The notes below the pieces were generated by a model. The model was not told the DNA's origin. It worked only from the letters and a program-made list of their open reading frames with translations, and did not search any database. The position numbers and the translations under genes were made by a program. From the NCBI RefSeq assembly GCF_024223415.1, contig NZ_CP100500.1: DNA of 64,000 nucleotides; one strand, written 5' to 3'. Origin of the DNA: Escherichia coli. Lineage in GTDB: Bacteria; Pseudomonadota; Gammaproteobacteria; Enterobacterales; Enterobacteriaceae. This document shows, piece after piece, positions 6,182 to 33,974 of this stretch. The stretch's first letter is position 1, and every line of letters starts with the position of its first letter.

Positions 6182-9100
6182 ATGAGCGGAAAACCAGCGG
6201 CGCGTCAGGGAGATATGACTCAGTATGGCGGTCCCATTGTCCAGGGTTCGGCAGGTGTAAGAATTGGCGCGCCCACCGGCGTGGCGTGCTCGGTGTGTCC
6301 GGGCGGGATGACCTCGGGCAACCCGGTAAATCCGCTGCTGGGGGCGAAGGTGCTGCCCGGCGAGACGGACCTTGCGCTGCCCGGCCCGCTGCCGTTCATT
6401 CTCTCCCGCACCTACAGCAGCTACCGGACGAAGACGCCTGCGCCGGTGGGGATTTTTGGCCCCGGCTGGAAAGCGCCTTCTGATATCCGCTTACAGCTAC
6501 ATGATGACGGACTGATACTCAACGACAACGGCGGGCGGAGCATTCACTTTGAGCCGCTGCTGCCGGGGGAGGCGGTGTACAGCCGCAGCGAGTCAATGTG
6601 GCTGGTGCGCGGTGGTAAGGCAGCGCAGCCGGACGGCCACACGCTGGCGCGGCTGTGGGGGGCGCTGCCGCCGGATATCCGGTTAAGCCCGCATCTTTAC
6701 CTGGCGACCAACAGCGCACAGGGGCCGTGGTGGATACTGGGGTGGTCAGAGCGGGTGCCGGGTGCTGAGGACGTACTGCCAGCGCCGCTGCCGCCGTACC
6801 GGGTGCTTACCGGGCTGGCAGACCGTTTCGGGCGGACGCTGACGTACCGGCGTGAGGCCGCAGGCGACCTGGCCGGGGAAATCACCGGCGTGACGGACGG
6901 TGCCGGGCGTGAGTTCCGTCTGGTACTGACCACACAGGCACAGCGGGCGGAAGAGGCCCGCACCTCTTCGCTATCTTCTTCTGACAGTTCCCGCCCTCTC
7001 TCAGCCTCAGCGTTCCCCGACACACTGCCCGGTACCGAATACGGCCCCGACAGGGGTATCCGTCTTTCAGCGGTGTGGCTGATGCACGACCCGGCATACC
7101 CGGAGAATCTGCCCGGTGCGCCACTGGCGCGGTACACGTATACGGAAGCCGGTGAACTGCTGGCGGTATATGACCGCAGCAATACGCAGGTGCGCGCTTT
7201 CACGTATGACGCGCAGCACCCGGGCCGGATGGTGGCGCACCGTTACGCGGGAAGGCCGGAGATGCGCTACCGCTACGACGATACCGGGCGGGTGGTGGAG
7301 CAGCTGAACCCGGCAGGCCTGAGTTACCGCTACCAGTATGAGCAGGACCGCATCACCGTCACGGATAGCCTGAACCGGCGTGAGGTGCTGCATACAGAAG
7401 GCGGGGCCGGGCTGAAGCGGGTGGTGAAAAAAGAACTGGCGGACGGCAGCGTCACGCACAGCGGGTATGACGCGGCAGGAAGGCTCACGGCGCAGACGGA
7501 CGCGGCGGGACGGCGGACAGAGTACGGTCTGAATGTGGTGTCCGGCGATATCACGGACATCACCACACCGGACGGGCGGGAGACGAAATTTTACTATAAC
7601 GACGGGAACCAGCTGACGGCGGTGGTGTCCCCGGACGGGCTGGAGAGCCGCCGGGCATATGATGAACCGGGCAGGCTGGTATCGGAGACATCGCGCAGCG
7701 GGGAGACAGTACGCTACCGCTACGATGATGCGTACAGTGAGTTACCGGCGACGACAACAGATGCGACGGGCAGCACCCGGCAGATGACCTGGAGCCGCTA
7801 CGGTCAGTTGCTGGCGTTCACCGACTGCTCGGGCTACCAGACCCGCTATGAATACGACCGCTTCGGCCAGATGACGGCGGTCCACCGCGAGGAAGGCATC
7901 AGCCTTTACCGCCGCTATGACAACCGTGGCCGGTTAATCTCGGTGAAAGACGCACAGGGCCATGAAACGCGGTATGAGTACAACGCCGCAGGCGACCTGA
8001 CTGCCGTCATTACCCCGGACGGCAACCGGAGCGAGACACAGTACGATGCGTGGGGAAAGGCGGTCAGCACCACGCAGGGCGGGCTGACGCGCAGTATGGA
8101 GTACGATGCTGCCGGACGTGTCATCAGCCTGACCAACGAGAACGGCAGCCGGAGTGAGTTTACCTACGATGCGCTGGACCGCCTGGTACAGCAGGGCGGC
8201 TTTGACGGGCGGACGCAGCGTTACCGTTATGACCTGACCGGAAAACTCACGCAGAGTGAAGATGAGGGGCTTGTCATCCTCTGGTACTACGATGAATCGG
8301 ACCGTATCACTCACCGCACGGTGAACGGCGAACCGGCAGAGCAGTGGCAGTATGATGGCCACGGCTGGCTGAGAGAAATCAGCCACCTGAGCGAAGGCCA
8401 CCGTGTTGCCGTCCACTATGGCTATGACGATAAAGGCCGCCTGACCGGCGAACGCCAGACGGTGGAGAACCCGGAGACGGGGGAACTGCTGTGGCAGCAT
8501 GAGACGAAACACGCATACAACGAGCAGGGGCTGGCAAACCGCGTCACGCCGGACAGCCTGCCGCCGGTGGAGTGGCTGACGTATGGCAGCGGTTACCTGG
8601 CGGGAATGAAGCTGGGCGGGACGCCGCTGGTCGAGTATACGCGGGACAGGCTGCACCGGGAGACGGTGCGCAGCTTCGGCAATAATGCATATGAACTGAC
8701 CAGCACTTACACCCCCGCAGGCCAGTTACAGAGCCAGCACCTGAACAGCCTGGTGTATGACCGTGACTACGGGTGGAATGACAACGGCGACCTGGTGCGC
8801 ATCAGCGGTCCGCGACAGACGCGGGAATACGGCTACAGCGCCACGGGCAGGCTGGAGAGTGTGCGCACCCTCGCACCGGACCTGGACATCCGCATCCCGT
8901 ATGCCACGGACCCGGCGGGCAACCGGCTGCCGGACCCGGAGCTGCACCCGGACAGTACACTCACAGTGTGGCCGGATAACCGAATCACCGAAGACGCGCA
9001 CTACCTGTACCGTTACGATGAATACGGCAGGCTGACGGAGAAGACGGACCGCATCCCGACGGGTGTGATACGGACGGACGACGAGCGGACCCACCACTAC

Positions 9101-10387
9101 CACTACGACAGCCAGCACCGCCTGGTGTTCTACACGCGGATACAGCATGAGGAGCCACTGGTCGAGAGCCGCTACCTCTACGACCCGCTGGGACGGCGAA
9201 TGGCAAAACGGGTCTGGCGGCGGGAGCGTGACCTGACGGGGTGGATGTCGCTGTCGCGTAAACCGGAGGAGACATGGTACGGGTGGGACGGCGACAGGCT
9301 GACGACGGTGCAGACTGACACCACACGTATCCAGACGGTCTACCAGCCGGGGAGCTTCACGCCGCTCATCCGTATCGAGACAGAGAACGGCGAACGGGAG
9401 AAAATGCAGCGCCGCAGCCTGGCGGAGAAGCTGCAGCAGGAAGGAAGTGAGGACGGTCACGGTGTGGTGTTCCCGGCTGAGCTGGTGAGGATGCTGGACA
9501 GGCTGGAGGAAGAAATCCGGGCAAACTGCGTGAGCAGTGAAAGCCGCCAGTGGCTTGCGCAGTGCGGGCTGACGGTGGAGCGGCTGGCGGCACAGATAGA
9601 GCCGGTTTATTTGCCTGAGCGAAAAATACATCTTTATCACTGTGACCACCGGGGCCTGCCGCTGGCGCTTATCAGTGAAGACGGCAATACGGCGTGGCGC
9701 GGGGAGTATGATGAATGGGGCAACCAGCTTAATGAAGAGAACCCGTATTACCTGCACCAGCCATACCGTCTGCCGGGGCAGCAGCATGATGAGGAATCAG
9801 GGCTGTACTATAACCGGAACCGGTACTATGACCCGCTACAGGGGAGGTATATTACACAAGACCCCATTGGGCTGGAGGGGGGATGGAACCTGTACCAATA
9901 TCCGCTGAATCCAGTGCAACACGTTGATCCATTAGGGCTTAGTACTATGATAATAGGTAACGGCCCCGTTCCTGATAATCCTTTTGGGCATGCTGCGGCG
10001 GCAAATCGATATGGATTAATGAGTTCGGGAACTGGGGATGAGATGGGAGCCTCTGTCTCTGATTATTTTAAAAAGATGCAACCCCGCAGAGATACCTGGA
10101 TTTGGATAATAGATACAACAGATGAAGAAGAACAATGTATGATGAATAAGGCAATAGACCTTAATAAAAAACTAAAAACTATTAACCTCGGGCCTCTTCC
10201 TGTTTTAAATAATTGTTTTAGCCGAACGAACATGATTTTTGAGGCGTGCGGGTTTAACAACCCCTCTATGAATACAAATGCGCCTATAAGCCTACAAGTG
10301 CTCGGTGAGCTTTATGGATATCAAAGATATATTATGCCTAAAGGTCCTTTCACTGGATTCCCATTTGAATTTCAAGAGGTAAAGTAA
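6182..10387 (+). CDS. rhsE: Full-length Rhs polymorphic toxin, 1401 aa: PAAR-like N-terminus, YD-repeat shell, DPLGL boundary motif, variable C-terminal domain
   Basis: N-terminus [23 protein letters not shown]...; many YD repeats ([17 protein letters not shown], ...); conserved core end ...[26 protein letters not shown]...VDPLGL at 9923-9940; symbol assigned by locus position (between yncH and H-rpt/pptA). Confidence 0.9.
9941..10387 (+). other. Rhs C-terminal variable (toxin) domain, 148 aa, family not recognised
   Basis: Begins immediately after DPLGL; abrupt drop in GC content relative to the rhs core; contains His and Cys residues (GHAAA, EEQCMM, NNCFS, EACGF) but no motif I can assign. 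Confidence 0.6.
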
Positions 10388-10786
10388 ATGGAAATGCTTG
10401 GGAAGATATTAGTGATAATTATTTCCATGATAATTATATCTTGTGATTATTATAATGCTGGCATGGACTATCAAGATAATATAGCCCTCGAGCAAGTCGT
10501 AACATGGGATTCTGATAATATATTCACACCTAATATCTTTGAACATAATGGAAGATGTTTTATGAAGAAAAATGAAACATGGATGTTATTAAATGGAGAT
10601 GCAACACCAAACATTAGAACAATGAGCAATAAGAAAATAGAATGCCTGGAGAAGAGTGAAGTAGAATGGGCTAGTAGGGTTTGCGACAGTATCACAGACA
10701 AGGAAAGGGAAAATCTGAAGGCATTAATATGTAGCAAACCAGCTAAATCAGTTAATACAGGCAAAAGACCAGCGTTAGGATATTGA
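10388..10786 (+). CDS. Putative Rhs immunity protein, 132 aa, predicted inner-membrane lipoprotein
   Basis: ATG directly follows the rhs TAA stop (10385-10387); N-terminus MEMLGKILVIIISMIIIS-C19-D20 = signal peptide plus lipobox-like IISC with Asp at +2; AT-rich like the toxin tip. Confidence 0.6.
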   Translation: MEMLGKILVIIISMIIISCDYYNAGMDYQDNIALEQVVTWDSDNIFTPNIFEHNGRCFMKKNETWMLLNGDATPNIRTMSNKKIECLEKSEVEWASRVCDSITDKERENLKALICSKPAKSVNTGKRPALGY

Positions 10787-10937
10787 AACCGGCACTGCAC
10801 TCTATCACTATTACAATATTCTGAGTGACTAGAGCAACTGCTCCGCCATCCGGGCTAGCAGTATGACGACGAATCCGAACTGCACTACAACTGGCACCGG
10901 TACTACAATCCGGGACAGGGACCAGGGAAAGATCACG
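10787..10937 (+). pseudogene. Vestigial orphan rhs core 3' fragment with in-frame stops
   Basis: Translation ...LRHPG*QYDDESELHYNWHRYYNPGQG aligns with the core end ...[27 protein letters not shown] of the upstream rhs (similarity also visible at DNA level); TGA and TAG stops in frame; homology ends at the intron boundary. Confidence 0.5.
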
Positions 10938-11424
10938 GTGTGCCGTAGGCACAAAGATGCAAAACGGGACGTTTTGCATGTAATAAGCATAAGCTTGTGA
11001 AGAGATGGTGGCAGGCCCACCGGGATCTGCTGTCGGAAGTCGGTCCCAAACAACCCCGGCTGCTGTGGTAAAGAGCCAAGGTAGTGAGCGCAGGGGGAAC
11101 GATCAGACGAGATCTGATCCTGTGTGAGATACAGTGAGATGAGTAAACCCGAACCTGTGTTGAAACGTCGTTAGTCCTAAGTGACATCAAAACCGGAGGT
11201 TTCGTGATACCGCCTGGATTAATTTACGGGTGAATTCCGAATGCTGCGTAAATGGTGTCCGGCGTATAGCAGGCATGACGCTGTATCAGGCTCTTTGCAG
11301 GAACTACGGGAACCAGTCGTCGCAATGTCAAGAGAGAAATACAAATAACCGAAATTATGAGTATGAGAGTATCGATGTGCGAAACCGGGGCAGAGCTGTT
11401 CGTAGTAGTGAGGAAGCGTTTGTA

Positions 11425-12725
11425 ATGAATGTGGAGCGAAGGGGCAACGTCGGGCAGTCTGCATCACAGCCCAACTGTAAACAGGAGGAGGCTGCGGGTG
11501 AACAGACAAAACCGTTTCAGGTCAGTAAATTGCATGTGGTGGAAGCGTACCGTCGGGTAAAGGCGAATGCCGGAGCTGCCGGAGTGGATAACCAGACGCT
11601 GAAAGATTTTGAGCGGGATCTGAAAGGAAATCTGTACAAAATCTGGAACAGGTTATCGTCGGGAAGCTGGATGCCGCCGCCAGTGCGTGCGGTGGAAATT
11701 CCGAAGAAGGATGGCAGTAAAAGGCTTTTAGGAATACCGACAGTAAGCGATCGAATAGCGCAGATGACGGTGCTGGTAACGTTTGAACCATTAGTGGAGC
11801 GTTATTTCCTGAATGATTCATACGGATACCGGCATGGAAAATCAGCGCTGGATGCAATAGCAGTTACCAGAAAACGTTGCTGGCAATACGACTGGTGTCT
11901 TGAGTTTGATATTAAAGGGTTATTCGATAATATCCCCCACGATTTATTACTCAGGGCAGTGGATAAACATTGCGCGGATAAATGGGTAAGACTGTATATT
12001 CGCAGGTGGCTGACAGCGCCGGTGCAGATGCCGGATGGAACACTGAAGGAAAGAAATAAAGGTACGCCACAGGGTGGAGTCATCAGTCCGGTACTGGCGA
12101 ATTTATTTCTGCACTATGTGTTTGATAAATGGCTGTCGTTACATTATCCGGAAATTCCCTGGTGTCGTTATGCAGATGATGGATTAATTCATTGTGGCAG
12201 TAAACAACAGGCAGAGGAATTACTGAATAAACTGGCAAAACGTTTTCAGGAATGTGGACTGGAATTACATCCGGAGAAAACGAAAATAGTTTACTGCAAA
12301 GACAGCTAACGACAGGCGAACCACGAAACAGTGCAGTTTGATTTTCTGGGTTATACGTTCAGGGCGAGAAGAGCACGTAATCAGCGAAGTGGAAATCTCT
12401 TTACGAGTTTCAGTCCGGCGGTGAGTAACAGTGCGCAGAAAGGCATGATCGAAAAACTCAGGAAACTGCGGCTCAGACGCAGGGTGGAGATGAGTCTCGA
12501 AGATATTGCGAAAAGGCTGAATCCGATGATATCGGGGTGGCTGAATTATTACGCGAAATACCACAAAGATATATTAATCTGACGCTGATTGCGTGGGCGA
12601 GAAAGAAATATAAAACCCTGCGGTATAGAAAGACGAAGGCGTGTCAGCTAATGGAAAGGCTGTCAAAAGAGAAGCCGGAGTTGTTTGCCCACTGGAATGC
12701 AGGACCGGAAAGCGCGTTTGCCTGA
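11425..12725 (+). pseudogene. Group II intron reverse transcriptase/maturase (IEP), disrupted by an in-frame TAA and a frameshift
   Basis: RT motifs (AGAAGVDNQTL..., GTPQGGVISPVLANLFL, RYADDGLI = YADD box) and X/maturase motifs (FDFLGYTF, ISGWLNYY); TAA at 12307-12309 interrupts the frame; C-terminal segment (12537..12725) is in a different frame; start could alternatively be the upstream ATG at 11230. Confidence 0.75.
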
Positions 12726-12728
12726 CGG

Positions 12729-12762
12729 GAGCCGTATGAAGCGAGAGTTTCACGTACGGTTC
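12729..12762 (+). ncRNA. Group II intron domain V (catalytic hairpin)
   Basis: gagccgtatgaagcgagagtttcacgtacggttc: 10-bp lower stem with AGC triad at positions 2-4, 2-nt bulge on the 3' strand, 4-bp upper stem, GNRA (GAGA) tetraloop; 4 nt after the IEP stop. Confidence 0.7.
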
Positions 12763-12945
12763 TGCGAGAGGCTGTCGGGGAGGTTCCGGTGGCCTACTCA
12801 CTTAACGCTGCTTTTTTGTACTAAATAATTCGCATTTTATGTTTAAAAATTGAGATATTCCCCATTACCTAAAGCTGTTTTTTATTGCTTATACATGATC
12901 AAATACTCCTTACATAATTAAGGAGAACAAAATGGAATTAAAAAA

Positions 12946-14067
12946 TTGATGGAACATATTTCTGTTATCCCCGATTACAGACAAGCCTGGAAAGTGGAAC
13001 ATAAATTATCGGATATTCTACTGTTGACTATTTGTGCCGTTATTTCTGGTGCAGAAGGTTGGGAAGATATAGAGGATTTTGGGGAAACACATCTCGATTT
13101 TTTGAAGCAATATGGTGATTTTGAAAATGGTATTCCTGTTCACGATACCATTGCCAGAGTTGTATCCTGTATCAGTCCTGCAAAATTTCACGAGTGCTTT
13201 ATTAACTGGATGCGTGACTGCCATTCTTCAGATGATAAAGACGTCATTGCAATTGATGGAATAACGCTCCGGCACTCTTATGATAAGAGTCGTCGCAGGG
13301 GAGCGATTCATGTCATTAGTGCGTTCTCAACAATGCACAGTCTGGTCCTCGGACAGATCAGGACGGATGAGAAATCTAATGAGATTACAGCTATTCCTGA
13401 ACTTCTTAACATGATGGATATTAAAGGAAAAATCATCACAACTGATGCGATGGGTTGCCAGAAAGATATTGCAGAAAAGATACAAAAACAGGGAGGGGAT
13501 TATTTATTCGCTGTAAAGGGAAATCAGGGGCGACTAAATAAAGCCTTTGAGGAAAAATTCCCGCTGAAAGAATTAAATAATCCAGAGCATGACAGTTACG
13601 CAATCAGTGAAAAGAGTCACGGCAGAGAAGAAATCCGTCTTCATATTGTTTACGATGTCCCTGATGAACTTATTGATTTCACGTTTGAATGGAAAGGGCT
13701 GAAGAAATTATGCGTGGCAGTCTCCTTTCGGTCCATAATAGCAGAACAAAAGAAAGAGCCAAAAATGACGGTCAGATATTATATCAGTTCTGCTGATTTA
13801 ACCGCAGAGAAGTTCGCCACAGCAATCCGAAACCACTGGCACGTGGAGAATAAGCTGCACTGGCGTCTGGACGTGGTAATGAATGAAGACGACTGCAAAA
13901 TAAGAAGAGGAAATGCAGCAGAATTATTTTCAGGGATACGGCACATTGCTATTAATATTTTGACGAATGATAAGGTATTCAAGGCAGGGTTAAGACGTAA
14001 GATGCGAAAAGCAGCCATGGACAGAAACTATCTGGCGTCAGTCCTTGCGGGGAGCGGGCTTTCGTAA
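12946..14067 (+). CDS. ydcC: H-repeat-associated protein (ISAs1-family transposase), Rhs-linked
   Basis: ORF 12946..14067 (373 aa as called from a TTG; next codon is ATG) with DDE-type transposase sequence; an upstream ATG at 12932 with AGGAG RBS (12921-12925) is out of frame because of a 6-A run at 12940-12945. Confidence 0.85.
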
Positions 14068-14377
14068 TCTTGCCCTGGTTCGTTGAGTTTTTCTGCATTG
14101 CCGGTAATTTTTGCATCTTCTTTGTCCGTGGCTTGTTTCAGCGTCTATAATGGGCGTTAATAAATTGGCAAGTCGGGAACTTGATGTTTTCTTAATGGTA
14201 TGTAGGCAGAAGAATATGTTCTGCAAGTTGACGATTTGTTGGTGCTTTATTTAAAAGGGTGTAGTGCAAATATCTACAATTTCAAGTAGGCATTATTGTC
14301 GTAAAAACGCATCACCGGACATACGACATTCACAATGTGTGTTAATTTTACTGACATCTTTCAAAAGGAGCACAATC

Positions 14378-30926: not shown

Positions 30927-33900
30927 ATGGACGTCAGTCGCAGACAATTTTTTAAAATCTGCGCGGGCGGTATGGCTGGAACAACAGTAGCGGCATTGGG
31001 CTTTGCCCCGAAGCAAGCACTGGCTCAGGCGCGAAACTACAAATTATTACGCGCTAAAGAGATCCGTAACACCTGCACATACTGTTCCGTAGGTTGCGGG
31101 CTATTGATGTATAGCCTGGGTGATGGCGCAAAAAACGCCAGAGAAGCGATTTATCACATTGAAGGTGACCCGGATCATCCGGTAAGCCGTGGTGCGCTGT
31201 GCCCCAAAGGGGCCGGTTTGCTGGATTACGTCAACAGTGAAAACCGTCTGCGCTACCCGGAATATCGTGCGCCAGGTTCTGACAAATGGCAGCGCATTAG
31301 CTGGGAAGAAGCATTCTCCCGTATTGCGAAGCTGATGAAAGCTGACCGTGACGCTAACTTTATTGAAAAGAACGAGCAGGGTGTAACGGTAAACCGTTGG
31401 CTTTCTACCGGTATGCTGTGTGCCTCCGGTGCCAGCAACGAAACCGGGATGCTGACCCAGAAATTTGCCCGCTCCCTCGGGATGCTGGCGGTAGACAACC
31501 AGGCGCGCGTCTGACACGGACCAACGGTAGCAAGTCTTGCTCCAACATTTGGTCGCGGTGCGATGACCAACCACTGGGTGGATATCAAAAACGCTAACGT
31601 AGTGATGGTGATGGGCGGTAACGCTGCTGAAGCGCATCCCGTCGGTTTCCGCTGGGCGATGGAAGCGAAAGACAACAACGATGCAACCTTGATCGTTGTC
31701 GATCCCCGTTTTACGCGTACCGCTTCTGTGGCGGATATTTACGCACCTATTCGTTCCGGTACGGACATTACGTTCCTGTCTGGCGTTTTGCGCTACCTGA
31801 TCGAAAACAACAAAATCAACGCCGAATACGTTAAGCATTACACCAACGCCAGCCTGCTGGTGCGTGATGATTTTGCTTTCGAAGACGGTCTGTTCAGCGG
31901 CTACGACGCTGAAAAACGCCAGTACGATAAGTCGTCCTGGAACTATCAGTTCGATGAAAACGGCTATGCAAAACGCGATGAAACACTGACTCATCCGCGC
32001 TGTGTGTGGAACCTGCTGAAAGAGCACGTTTCCCGCTACACGCCGGACGTCGTTGAAAACATCTGCGGTACGCCAAAAGCCGACTTCCTGAAAGTGTGTG
32101 AAGTGCTGGCCTCCACCAGCGCACCGGATCGCACAACCACCTTCCTGTACGCGCTGGGCTGGACGCAGCACACCGTGGGTGCGCAGAACATCCGTACTAT
32201 GGCGATGATCCAGTTGCTACTCGGTAACATGGGTATGGCCGGTGGCGGCGTGAACGCATTGCGTGGTCACTCCAACATTCAGGGGCTGACTGACTTAGGC
32301 CTGCTCTCTACCAGCCTGCCAGGTTATCTGACGCTGCCGTCAGAAAAACAGGTTGATTTGCAGTCGTATCTGGAAGCGAACACGCCGAAAGCGACGCTGG
32401 CTGGTCAGGTGAACTACTGGAGCAACTATCCGAAGTTCTTCGTTAGCCTGATGAAATCTTTCTATGGCGATGCCGCGCAGAAAGAGAACAACTGGGGCTA
32501 TGACTGGCTGCCGAAGTGGGACCAGACCTACGACGTCATCAAGTATTTCAACATGATGGATGAAGGCAAAGTCACCGGTTATTTCTGCCAGGGCTTTAAC
32601 CCGGTTGCGTCCTTCCCGGACAAAAACAAAGTGGTGAGCTGCCTGAGCAAGCTGAAGTATATGGTGGTTATCGATCCGCTGGTGACTGAAACCTCTACCT
32701 TCTGGCAGAACCACGGCGAGTCGAACGATGTCGATCCGGCGTCTATTCAGACTGAAGTATTCCGTCTGCCTTCGACCTGCTTTGCTGAAGAAGATGGTTC
32801 TATCGCTAACTCCGGTCGCTGGTTGCAGTGGCACTGGAAAGGTCAGGACGCGCCGGGTGAAGCGCGTAACGACGGCGAAATTCTGGCGGGTATCTACCAT
32901 CATCTGCGCGAGTTGTACCAGGCCGAAGGTGGTAAAGGCGTAGAACCGCTGATGAAGATGAGCTGGAACTACAAGCAGCCGCACGAACCGCAATCTGACG
33001 AAGTAGCTAAAGAGAACAACGGCTATGCGCTGGAAGATCTCTATGATGCTAATGGCGTGCTGATTGCGAAGAAAGGTCAGTTGCTGAGTAGCTTTGCGCA
33101 TCTGCGTGATGACGGTACAACCGCATCTTCTTGCTGGATCTACACCGGTAGCTGGACAGAGCAGGGCAACCAGATGGCTAACCGCGATAACTCCGACCCG
33201 TCCGGTCTGGGGAATACGCTGGGATGGGCCTGGGCGTGGCCGCTCAACCGTCGCGTGCTGTACAACCGTGCTTCGGCGGATATCAACGGTAAACCGTGGG
33301 ATCCGAAACGGATGCTGATCCAGTGGAACGGCAGCAAGTGGACGGGTAACGATATTCCGGACTTCGGCAATGCCGCACCGGGTACGCCAACCGGGCCGTT
33401 TATCATGCAGCCGGAAGGGATGGGACGCCTGTTTGCCATCAACAAAATGGCGGAAGGTCCGTTCCCGGAACACTACGAGCCGATTGAAACGCCGCTGGGC
33501 ACTAACCCGCTGCATCCGAACGTGGTGTCTAACCCGGTTGTTCGTCTGTATGAACAAGACGCACTGCGGATGGGTAAAAAAGAGCAGTTCCCGTATGTGG
33601 GTACGACCTATCGTCTGACCGAGCACTTCCACACCTGGACCAAGCACGCATTGCTCAATGCAATTGCTCAGCCGGAACAGTTTGTGGAAATCAGCGAAAC
33701 GCTGGCGGCGGCGAAAGGCATTAATAATGGCGATCGTGTCACTGTCTCAAGCAAGCGTGGCTTTATCCGCGCGGTGGCTGTGGTAACGCGTCGTCTGAAA
33801 CCGCTGAATGTAAATGGTCAGCAGGTTGAAACGGTGGGTATTCCAATCCACTGGGGCTTTGAGGGTGTCGCGCGTAAAGGTTATATCGCTAACACTCTGA

Positions 33901-33974
33901 CGCCGAATGTCGGTGATGCAAACTCGCAAACGCCGGAATATAAAGCGTTCTTAGTCAACATCGAGAAGGCGTAA
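30927..33974 (+). CDS. fdnG: Formate dehydrogenase-N alpha subunit, selenocysteine-containing (UGA at 31512-31514 decoded as Sec), 1015 aa
   Basis: Tat signal MDVSRRQFFKICAGGMAGTTVAA; the two ORF-track pieces (30927..31514 and 31563..33974) are in the same frame, separated only by the in-frame TGA. Confidence 0.95.
31512..31555 (+). promoter_or_regulatory. Selenocysteine recoding site: UGA plus downstream SECIS-like structured region
   Basis: In-frame TGA inside an otherwise continuous conserved ORF; GC-rich region immediately 3' (exact SECIS fold not computed). Confidence 0.55.

Follow-up and report, generated by a model that had tools for sequence, protein, structure and literature searches.

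The group II intron E.c.I9 of Escherichia coli, named after the Zimmerly group II intron database, has been assigned to class D and placed 'in a Rhs region' (Leclercq & Cordaux 2012, Tables S2/S3; PMC3522654). The Rhs insertion sequences (ISEc1-5) are targeted by two such elements, E.c.I2 and E.c.I9, at two different positions, and the fate of group II introns in enterobacteria is inactivation and loss, not proliferation (PMC3522654). Class D introns encode a maturase (IEP) with the C-terminal motif LX3AX3PXLF[V/A]HW; the mobile form of a group II intron is the excised lariat-IEP particle, and class D members, which are devoid of an endonuclease, prime with nascent lagging-strand DNA (PMC4615759). 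In vivo splicing of bacterial group II introns, including that of the class D member RmInt1, needs the IEP (PMC4615759), and maturases are described as preferentially cis-acting (Cui et al. 2004, as cited in PMC4615759).

The stretch of 64,000 nucleotides of E. coli DNA analysed here, referred to as the window, covers the RhsE region; strain Combat11I9 carries an identical stretch with the same RefSeq annotations across this region. Judged by its sequence, the group II intron of the window (Table 1) is E.c.I9, a known E. coli intron of bacterial class D. It matches the E.c.I9 reference of E. coli ATCC 8739 (NC_010468, 2411599-2413485) over the full length with 96.0% identity, which lies above the 90% nucleotide identity used for assigning this name (PMC3522654). 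Matches to Rfam on the + strand above the gathering threshold, namely to group-II-D1D4-2 (RF01999) at 11007-11122 (93.9 bits, E 7e-18) and to Intron_gpII (RF00029, domains V-VI) at 12727-12802 (62.8 bits, E 5.5e-10, gathering score 40), together with the Pfam matches of the frame-repaired protein to RVT_1 (E 1.4e-42) and GIIM (E 1.9e-10) and the NCBIfam match of the first ORF piece alone to TIGR04416 (354 bits, cut-off 300), establish a real group II intron far beyond chance. Its assignment to class D is based on the published table (PMC3522654, Table S2), the absence of En and the C-terminal motif. The IEP of an intact relative, 440 aa long, contains RVT_1 and GIIM only, the lack of a DNA-binding/endonuclease domain being a class D feature, and its class D motif reads MERLSKEKPELFAHW, which matches the core PELFAHW exactly and has M and S in place of L and A. 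The element is already known and ordinary, and it is already a pseudogene in RefSeq, where the identical locus is annotated as 'ltrA, group II intron reverse transcriptase/maturase; frameshifted; internal stop'. A literature search pairing H-rpt with a group II intron gave no match. We consider it highly probable, at nearly nine chances in ten, that the window contains a decayed, vertically inherited, immobile and probably non-splicing copy of E.c.I9 at its normal target.

Table 1. Coordinates of the E.c.I9 copy, its RNA and coding parts, its exons and the neighbouring genes in the window
Feature	Position	Strand	Basis
vgrG, RhsE region			
rhs core gene, following vgrG, RhsE region	6182..10387		
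Small immunity-type ORF, following the rhs core gene, RhsE region	10388..10786		
5' exon, first 15 nt of the ISEc1/H-rpt IRL (CAGGGAAAGATCACG)	10923..10937	+	ISEc1 copies; IRL/IRR alignment; other copies
Group II intron E.c.I9, class D, degenerate copy of 1865 nt (reference 1887 nt)	10938..12802	+	Rfam; N3 empty site; reference identity
Domain I, including the Rfam D1D4-2 segment 11007-11122	10943..11309	+	RNAalifold and pair counts
Tentative EBS2 (UCCU)	11175..11178	+	Variable internal-loop region
EBS1 hairpin	11193..11216	+	Loop covariation with the 5' exon
Helical domain (domain II or III) between domains I and IV	11313..11388	+	13 pairs with compensatory changes
Domain IV with the IEP gene	11408..12726	+	
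IEP piece 1: RT domains with YADD, 294 codons, ended by TAA 12307-12309	11425..12309	+	
IEP piece 2, same frame: RT end and most of the X/maturase domain	12310..12582	+	Alignment to L002, L003 and ATCC 8739
IEP piece 3, shifted frame: C-terminal 52 codons, TGA stop 12723-12725	12567..12725	+	Translation
Domain V, AGC triad 12730-12732, GAGA tetraloop 12743-12746, bulge	12729..12762	+	RF00029
Domain VI, bulged branch-point A 12796, 3' splice site after 12802	12764..12801	+	Rfam; covariation
3' exon, rest of ISEc1/H-rpt: IRL remainder (TAACGCTGCT...), ydcC, IRR ~14053-14079	12803..14077	+	
ISAs1-family transposase gene ydcC, downstream of the intron	12946..14067		
pptA, yddH, nhoA, in this order after ydcC			

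The position of the intron was derived from an empty site, for which the two flanks were joined and searched against complete E. coli genomes. An intron-less allele was found in strain N3 as a contiguous match, GATCACG^TAACGC (...AAAGATCACG^TAACGCTGC...; ...CAGGGAAAGATCACG^TAACGCTGCTTTTTTGTAC...), which fixes both intron ends, at 10938 and 12802. The first-pass annotation of this DNA had thus given the 5' end correctly and the 3' end, at 12801, one nucleotide too early. Its further statement that the intron is wedged between the rhs module and the H-rpt element has to be abandoned, as the intron splits the left inverted repeat (IRL) of ISEc1/H-rpt between nucleotides 15 and 16, i.e. 15 nt from the IS terminus. 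The location inside ISEc1 follows from the empty site, the starts of the ISEc1 matches, the inverted repeats and the copies found elsewhere. In thousands of ISEc1/H-rpt copies from complete E. coli genomes the match begins ~15-22 nt upstream of the junction (~10915-10923), and the sequence flanking the junction is imperfectly repeated, in inverted orientation, at 14053-14079, directly behind the transposase gene. Intron copies in unrelated 5' contexts, those of FDAARGOS_536 (L002), which adjoins a different vgrG island, and of ATCC 8739 (L005), share upstream only ...CAGGG(A/G)AAGATCAC(G/T). The same insertion point, 15 nt inside the IRL, is found in the window, L002, L003 and ATCC 8739, and it is the published homing site of E.c.I9 in the Rhs IS (PMC3522654); free homing sites elsewhere within the window were not found.

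Several features of the surrounding DNA may be added. A short orphan rhs core-end fragment (~10866-10922, +) follows the immunity-type ORF and precedes the IS, whose left end (ISEc1) cuts it off; its translation, ending in ...ELHYNWHRYYNPGQG, resembles the terminal part of the main rhs core. A promoter/terminator scan revealed no excess of sites and none directly upstream of the intron, so that transcription of the intron would depend on read-through from rhs. The GC skew of the window (+0.02) is too weak for a test of the bias towards the lagging-strand template that class D introns are expected to show. Outside the Rhs locus, a full-length Rfam match to SECIS_3 at 31509-31567 (+; 84.3 bits, E 1.4e-18) lies directly ahead of an 803-aa ORF (31563-33974), overlaps its start and has the appearance of a selenocysteine insertion element belonging to an fdnG-type formate dehydrogenase gene whose UGA splits the reading frame.

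The structure of the intron RNA was deduced comparatively, using nine relatives with IEPs 61-79% identical and an alignment of the 5' ~490 nt of 11 introns that was folded with RNAalifold. All of the relatives begin with GUGUGCCG, carry the D1D4-2 segment ~70 nt from this end and have a domain V that starts 2-3 nt behind the stop codon. The consensus structure of the 11 introns comprises 114 pairs, with 97.9% of the cells paired and compensatory changes in 56 pairs, compared to 34-43% of the cells and 4-11 pairs in slid controls with the partners moved by 1-3 columns. Domain I is closed by a helix between 10943-10948 (CCGUAG) and 11304-11309 (CUACGG), which shows a compensatory change from U-A to C-G; this canonical, covarying helix was taken as more likely than a hairpin at 10939-10953 and a helix 11303-11310/11400-11406 offered by RNAalifold. 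The minimum free energy fold of the 5' 493 nt as a single sequence (z = -1.99), a structure lacking comparative support, was dropped.

The loop 11200-11209 is assigned to EBS1 because it changes along with the exon in the relatives. Within this loop, CGUGAU (11203-11208) pairs over 6 bp with IBS1 AUCACG (10932-10937), and covariation of the loop with the 6-7 nt preceding the 5' splice site is seen in L006, L010, L011 and L012, the loop/exon combinations being CUUCAAU/AUUGAAG in L006, UUUUUAC/GUAAAAA in L011 and UGUCCC/GGGAUA in L012. The putative EBS2 could tentatively pair with IBS2 AGGG (10924-10927), over 4 bp only; complementarity of the EBS2-IBS2 kind, 11-16 nt upstream of the splice site, also occurs in L006, L008, L010 and L013. 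For EBS3, none of the alignment columns complements the first base of the 3' exon across the set of relatives. From RNAalifold predictions on the joined 5' and 3' alignments we infer a basal stem of domain IV between 11408-11417, overlapping the Shine-Dalgarno sequence AGGA (region 11411-11417), and 12716-12726, containing the stop codon; compensatory changes in this stem were not seen among the relatives. The segment GUUUGCCUGA, which includes the IEP stop codon, consists of nearly invariant nucleotides across the relatives, and its predicted pairing with the Shine-Dalgarno sequence could be a translational control feature. Domain V starts 3 nt after the TGA and exhibits a compensatory change from C-G to G-C among 12 introns. 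In domain VI, the distal stem covaries and A12796 is the seventh nucleotide from the intron end. The whole segment 12728-12802 is free of differences from L002, L003 and ATCC 8739.

These data agree in most structural respects with the first-pass annotation, which had recognised a group II intron with a GUGYG-type 5' end (GUGUG at 10938), ~490 nt of structured RNA ahead of the ORF (487 nt, supported by covariation), an RT/maturase ORF with YADD and X-domain motifs, a textbook domain V with AGC triad, bulge and GNRA-type loop shortly after the ORF and a domain VI helix with a bulged A. Two of the checks it recommended, class assignment against known introns and folding with covariance models, are answered by the identification as E.c.I9 and by the RF01999 and RF00029 matches, respectively.

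The maturase had likewise been regarded as broken, which the comparison with intact copies substantiates. The start codon of the IEP gene at 11425 lies 487 nt into the intron, and the YADD box is present. Relative to the intact copies, which encode 440 aa (L002, 4488-5810; ATCC 8739, WP_001100282.1), the window copy carries a GAA>TAA nonsense mutation at 12307-12309 (E295*), just after RT motif 7, and a frameshifting deletion of 22 nt between 12566 and 12567, inside domain X. The second of the resulting pieces ends at a stop created by the deletion and matches positions 259-330 of the TIGR04416 profile, and the class D core (...KEKPELFAHW...) survives at 12675-12695, out of frame. Together, the lesions remove the maturase (X) domain as well as the C-terminal class D motif, so that at most an RT fragment of 294 aa, devoid of domain X, can be produced. 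An uninterrupted IEP reading frame, as required for autonomous mobility, is absent, and the copy is immobile because of its broken ORF. Besides the deletion, the lineage-specific substitutions in the ORF amount to eight synonymous, two missense and one nonsense; this ratio suggests constraint for most of the branch and a late inactivation of the IEP gene on it.

The ribozyme, described as intact-looking by the first-pass annotation, appears from the aligned copies to be largely preserved, though with some damage. No change from the intact copies is found in domains V and VI, at either splice site or in the EBS1-IBS1 pairing, which bears out that description, whereas three lineage-specific, helix-breaking substitutions in the 5' 487 nt, within domains I-III, speak against it. 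Each of these (11079, 11215 and 11315) is situated at a position that is paired in the relatives and none in domain V, domain VI, EBS1 or a splice site. The resulting mismatches are G.A at 11065/11079, C.U at 11194/11215 in the EBS1 stem (G>U) and A.C at 11315/11386 (G>A), the effect of the first being ambiguous because the G.U there is unpaired in the Rfam model. With five mismatched pairs in total, the window copy exceeds all others of the set; its intact sister L002 has two. Helices of domain I commonly tolerate a mismatch or two.

Some piece of E.c.I9 is present in 2545 of 5426 complete genomes, and at least 80% of the intron in 82-83. Among the best 60 matches, 21 represent the window allele (17 at 100.0% and four at 99.9% identity), one (L003) contains a different frameshift of 1 nt, six are interrupted by IS1 and the remainder are 1887 nt long; the two of these that were examined, L002 and ATCC 8739, have intact ORFs. 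In the IS1-containing group (H161-H165 and H168, e.g. NZ_CP073718.1, 2603176-2605839), E.c.I9 is split by IS1 into two-piece matches of ~2663 nt, which constitutes an independent route of inactivation. Fragments of 193 bp and 159 bp were also recovered, as listed for O157 and B strains (PMC3522654). At the RhsE locus of O157:H7 strain 9234 (L015, 3440-3740), the widespread 5' remnant of 193 nt ends exactly at a new left end of ISEc1 (TAGGGAAAGATCATC...), and partial IRL duplicates are found upstream of it. The coincidence of the two ends suggests that the remnant originated by insertion of ISEc1 into the intron or by IS-IS recombination, and not by incomplete reverse transcription.

In vivo, this copy is most likely non-splicing, as argued by analogy with characterized bacterial introns. 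It is improbable that the ribozyme is competent and still splices, alone or with a maturase in trans, and that mobility alone has been lost. Domains V and VI, the GUGUG end, the branch-point A and the 6-bp EBS1-IBS1 pairing are the same as in the intact copies, the 5' region of domain IV, the usual binding site of the IEP, has only silent differences, and some self-splicing or low-level splicing might persist. However, the IEP needed by bacterial introns in vivo ends here before domain X, maturases favour action in cis, three new helix mismatches have appeared, and transcription relies on read-through from rhs. A helper also appears to be missing: the search for intact copies elsewhere in the genome, as advised by the first-pass annotation, yielded by megablast a single E.c.I9-like place in each of the 21 genomes with the window allele, which argues against a cognate maturase in trans, megablast being blind to a related class D intron below ~85% nucleotide identity that might serve as a source of a partly compatible maturase. 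The opinion of the first-pass annotation that mobility would need a maturase supplied in trans is correct with respect to the broken ORF, but it falls short insofar as splicing itself also depends on the IEP (PMC4615759).

It would be still more surprising if the 294-aa RT fragment or the intron RNA were kept for the benefit of the host, either for disabling ISEc1 or for an RT-based defence. Seventeen genomes carry the allele in identical form and four more at 99.9% identity or above, their sources being human, poultry, calf, pig and mink, but such near-identity is expected from recent common descent and is not evidence for selection. The intron does part nucleotides 1-15 of the IRL from the remaining repeat, and a weak NCBIfam similarity to defence RTs exists (Drt3a, 52.7 bits against a cut-off of 200); however, the RT fragment is devoid of the thumb/X domain and matches to defence RTs reflect the generic RT fold. 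Moreover, the locus is intact, IS1-interrupted or reduced to a 193-bp remnant in other lineages, which is a pattern of neutral decay.

For the favoured decayed copy of E.c.I9, the following history can be proposed. An active ancestor would have retrohomed into the IRL of the ISEc1/H-rpt element next to RhsE, recognising its target mainly by pairing of EBS1 (CGUGAU) with IBS1 (AUCACG). Later, in this lineage, the nonsense mutation E295* and the 22-nt deletion in domain X would have abolished production of the maturase, and helix-breaking substitutions would have begun to accumulate in the ribozyme, the order of these events and the loss of splicing being what we infer beyond the observed identity, boundaries, homing site, lesions, RNA architecture and distribution among genomes. 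What is left is a 1.9-kb insertion splitting the left end of the IS. The copies at RhsE can be arranged as a decay series from intact (ATCC 8739) via point-inactivated (the window allele) and IS1-interrupted forms to the 193-bp remnants, in agreement with the published extinction model (PMC3522654). For annotation, the value lies in the boundaries 10938-12802 and in the attribution of the intron to ISEc1 instead of the rhs module; beyond this, the import is small.

Among described elements, the E.c.I9 reference of ATCC 8739 shares with the window copy the RhsE/pptA/yddH/nhoA locus, the orientation and the insertion after ...AAGATCACG in the left end of ISEc1. The window copy differs from it by E295*, the 22-nt deletion and the three extra helix mismatches. 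The reference encodes an intact 440-aa IEP, yet its EBS1 loop (AUGAUGAU) has diverged and its 3' flank differs. At positions 245-267 of the ATCC 8739 intron, the EBS1 loop reads CAUGAUGAU compared to UUUCGUGAU, with ~4 bp of complementarity to its own AUCACG; its 3' flank is AGAAGTACAC compared to TAACGCTGCT in the other copies, and its ISAs1 transposase is truncated.

E.c.I2 is also a class D intron without En that homes to a Rhs-associated IS, but at a different target position (PMC3522654). A metagenomic relative (L006, 379-2266; IEP 79% identical) with the same RNA architecture resides in an ISAs1-type transposase gene; its target within the transposase coding sequence, ...GGGAAGATATTGAAG^ATTTCGG, matches its EBS1 CUUCAAU and probably corresponds to the E.c.I2 site. 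The homologous site in ydcC of the window (GGGAAGATATAGAGG^ATTTTGG, ~13075/13076, within ~13061-13080) is unoccupied. Class D relatives with IEPs 64-79% identical were found within ISAs1-family transposase genes in L006 and L007 and next to such a gene in L013; the transposase contexts of other relatives are of the IS3 and IS5/DUF772 types.

RmInt1 of Sinorhizobium meliloti (class D/IIB3), to which E.c.I9 is likened by its features, belongs to another host and another IS and is active and multi-copy, whereas the window contains a single, presumably dead copy. Its IEP consists of RT and X without D/En and ends in a class-specific C-terminal motif, and RmInt1 homes via EBS-IBS pairing into the insertion sequence ISRm2011-2 (PMC4615759), as does E.c.I9 into ISEc1.
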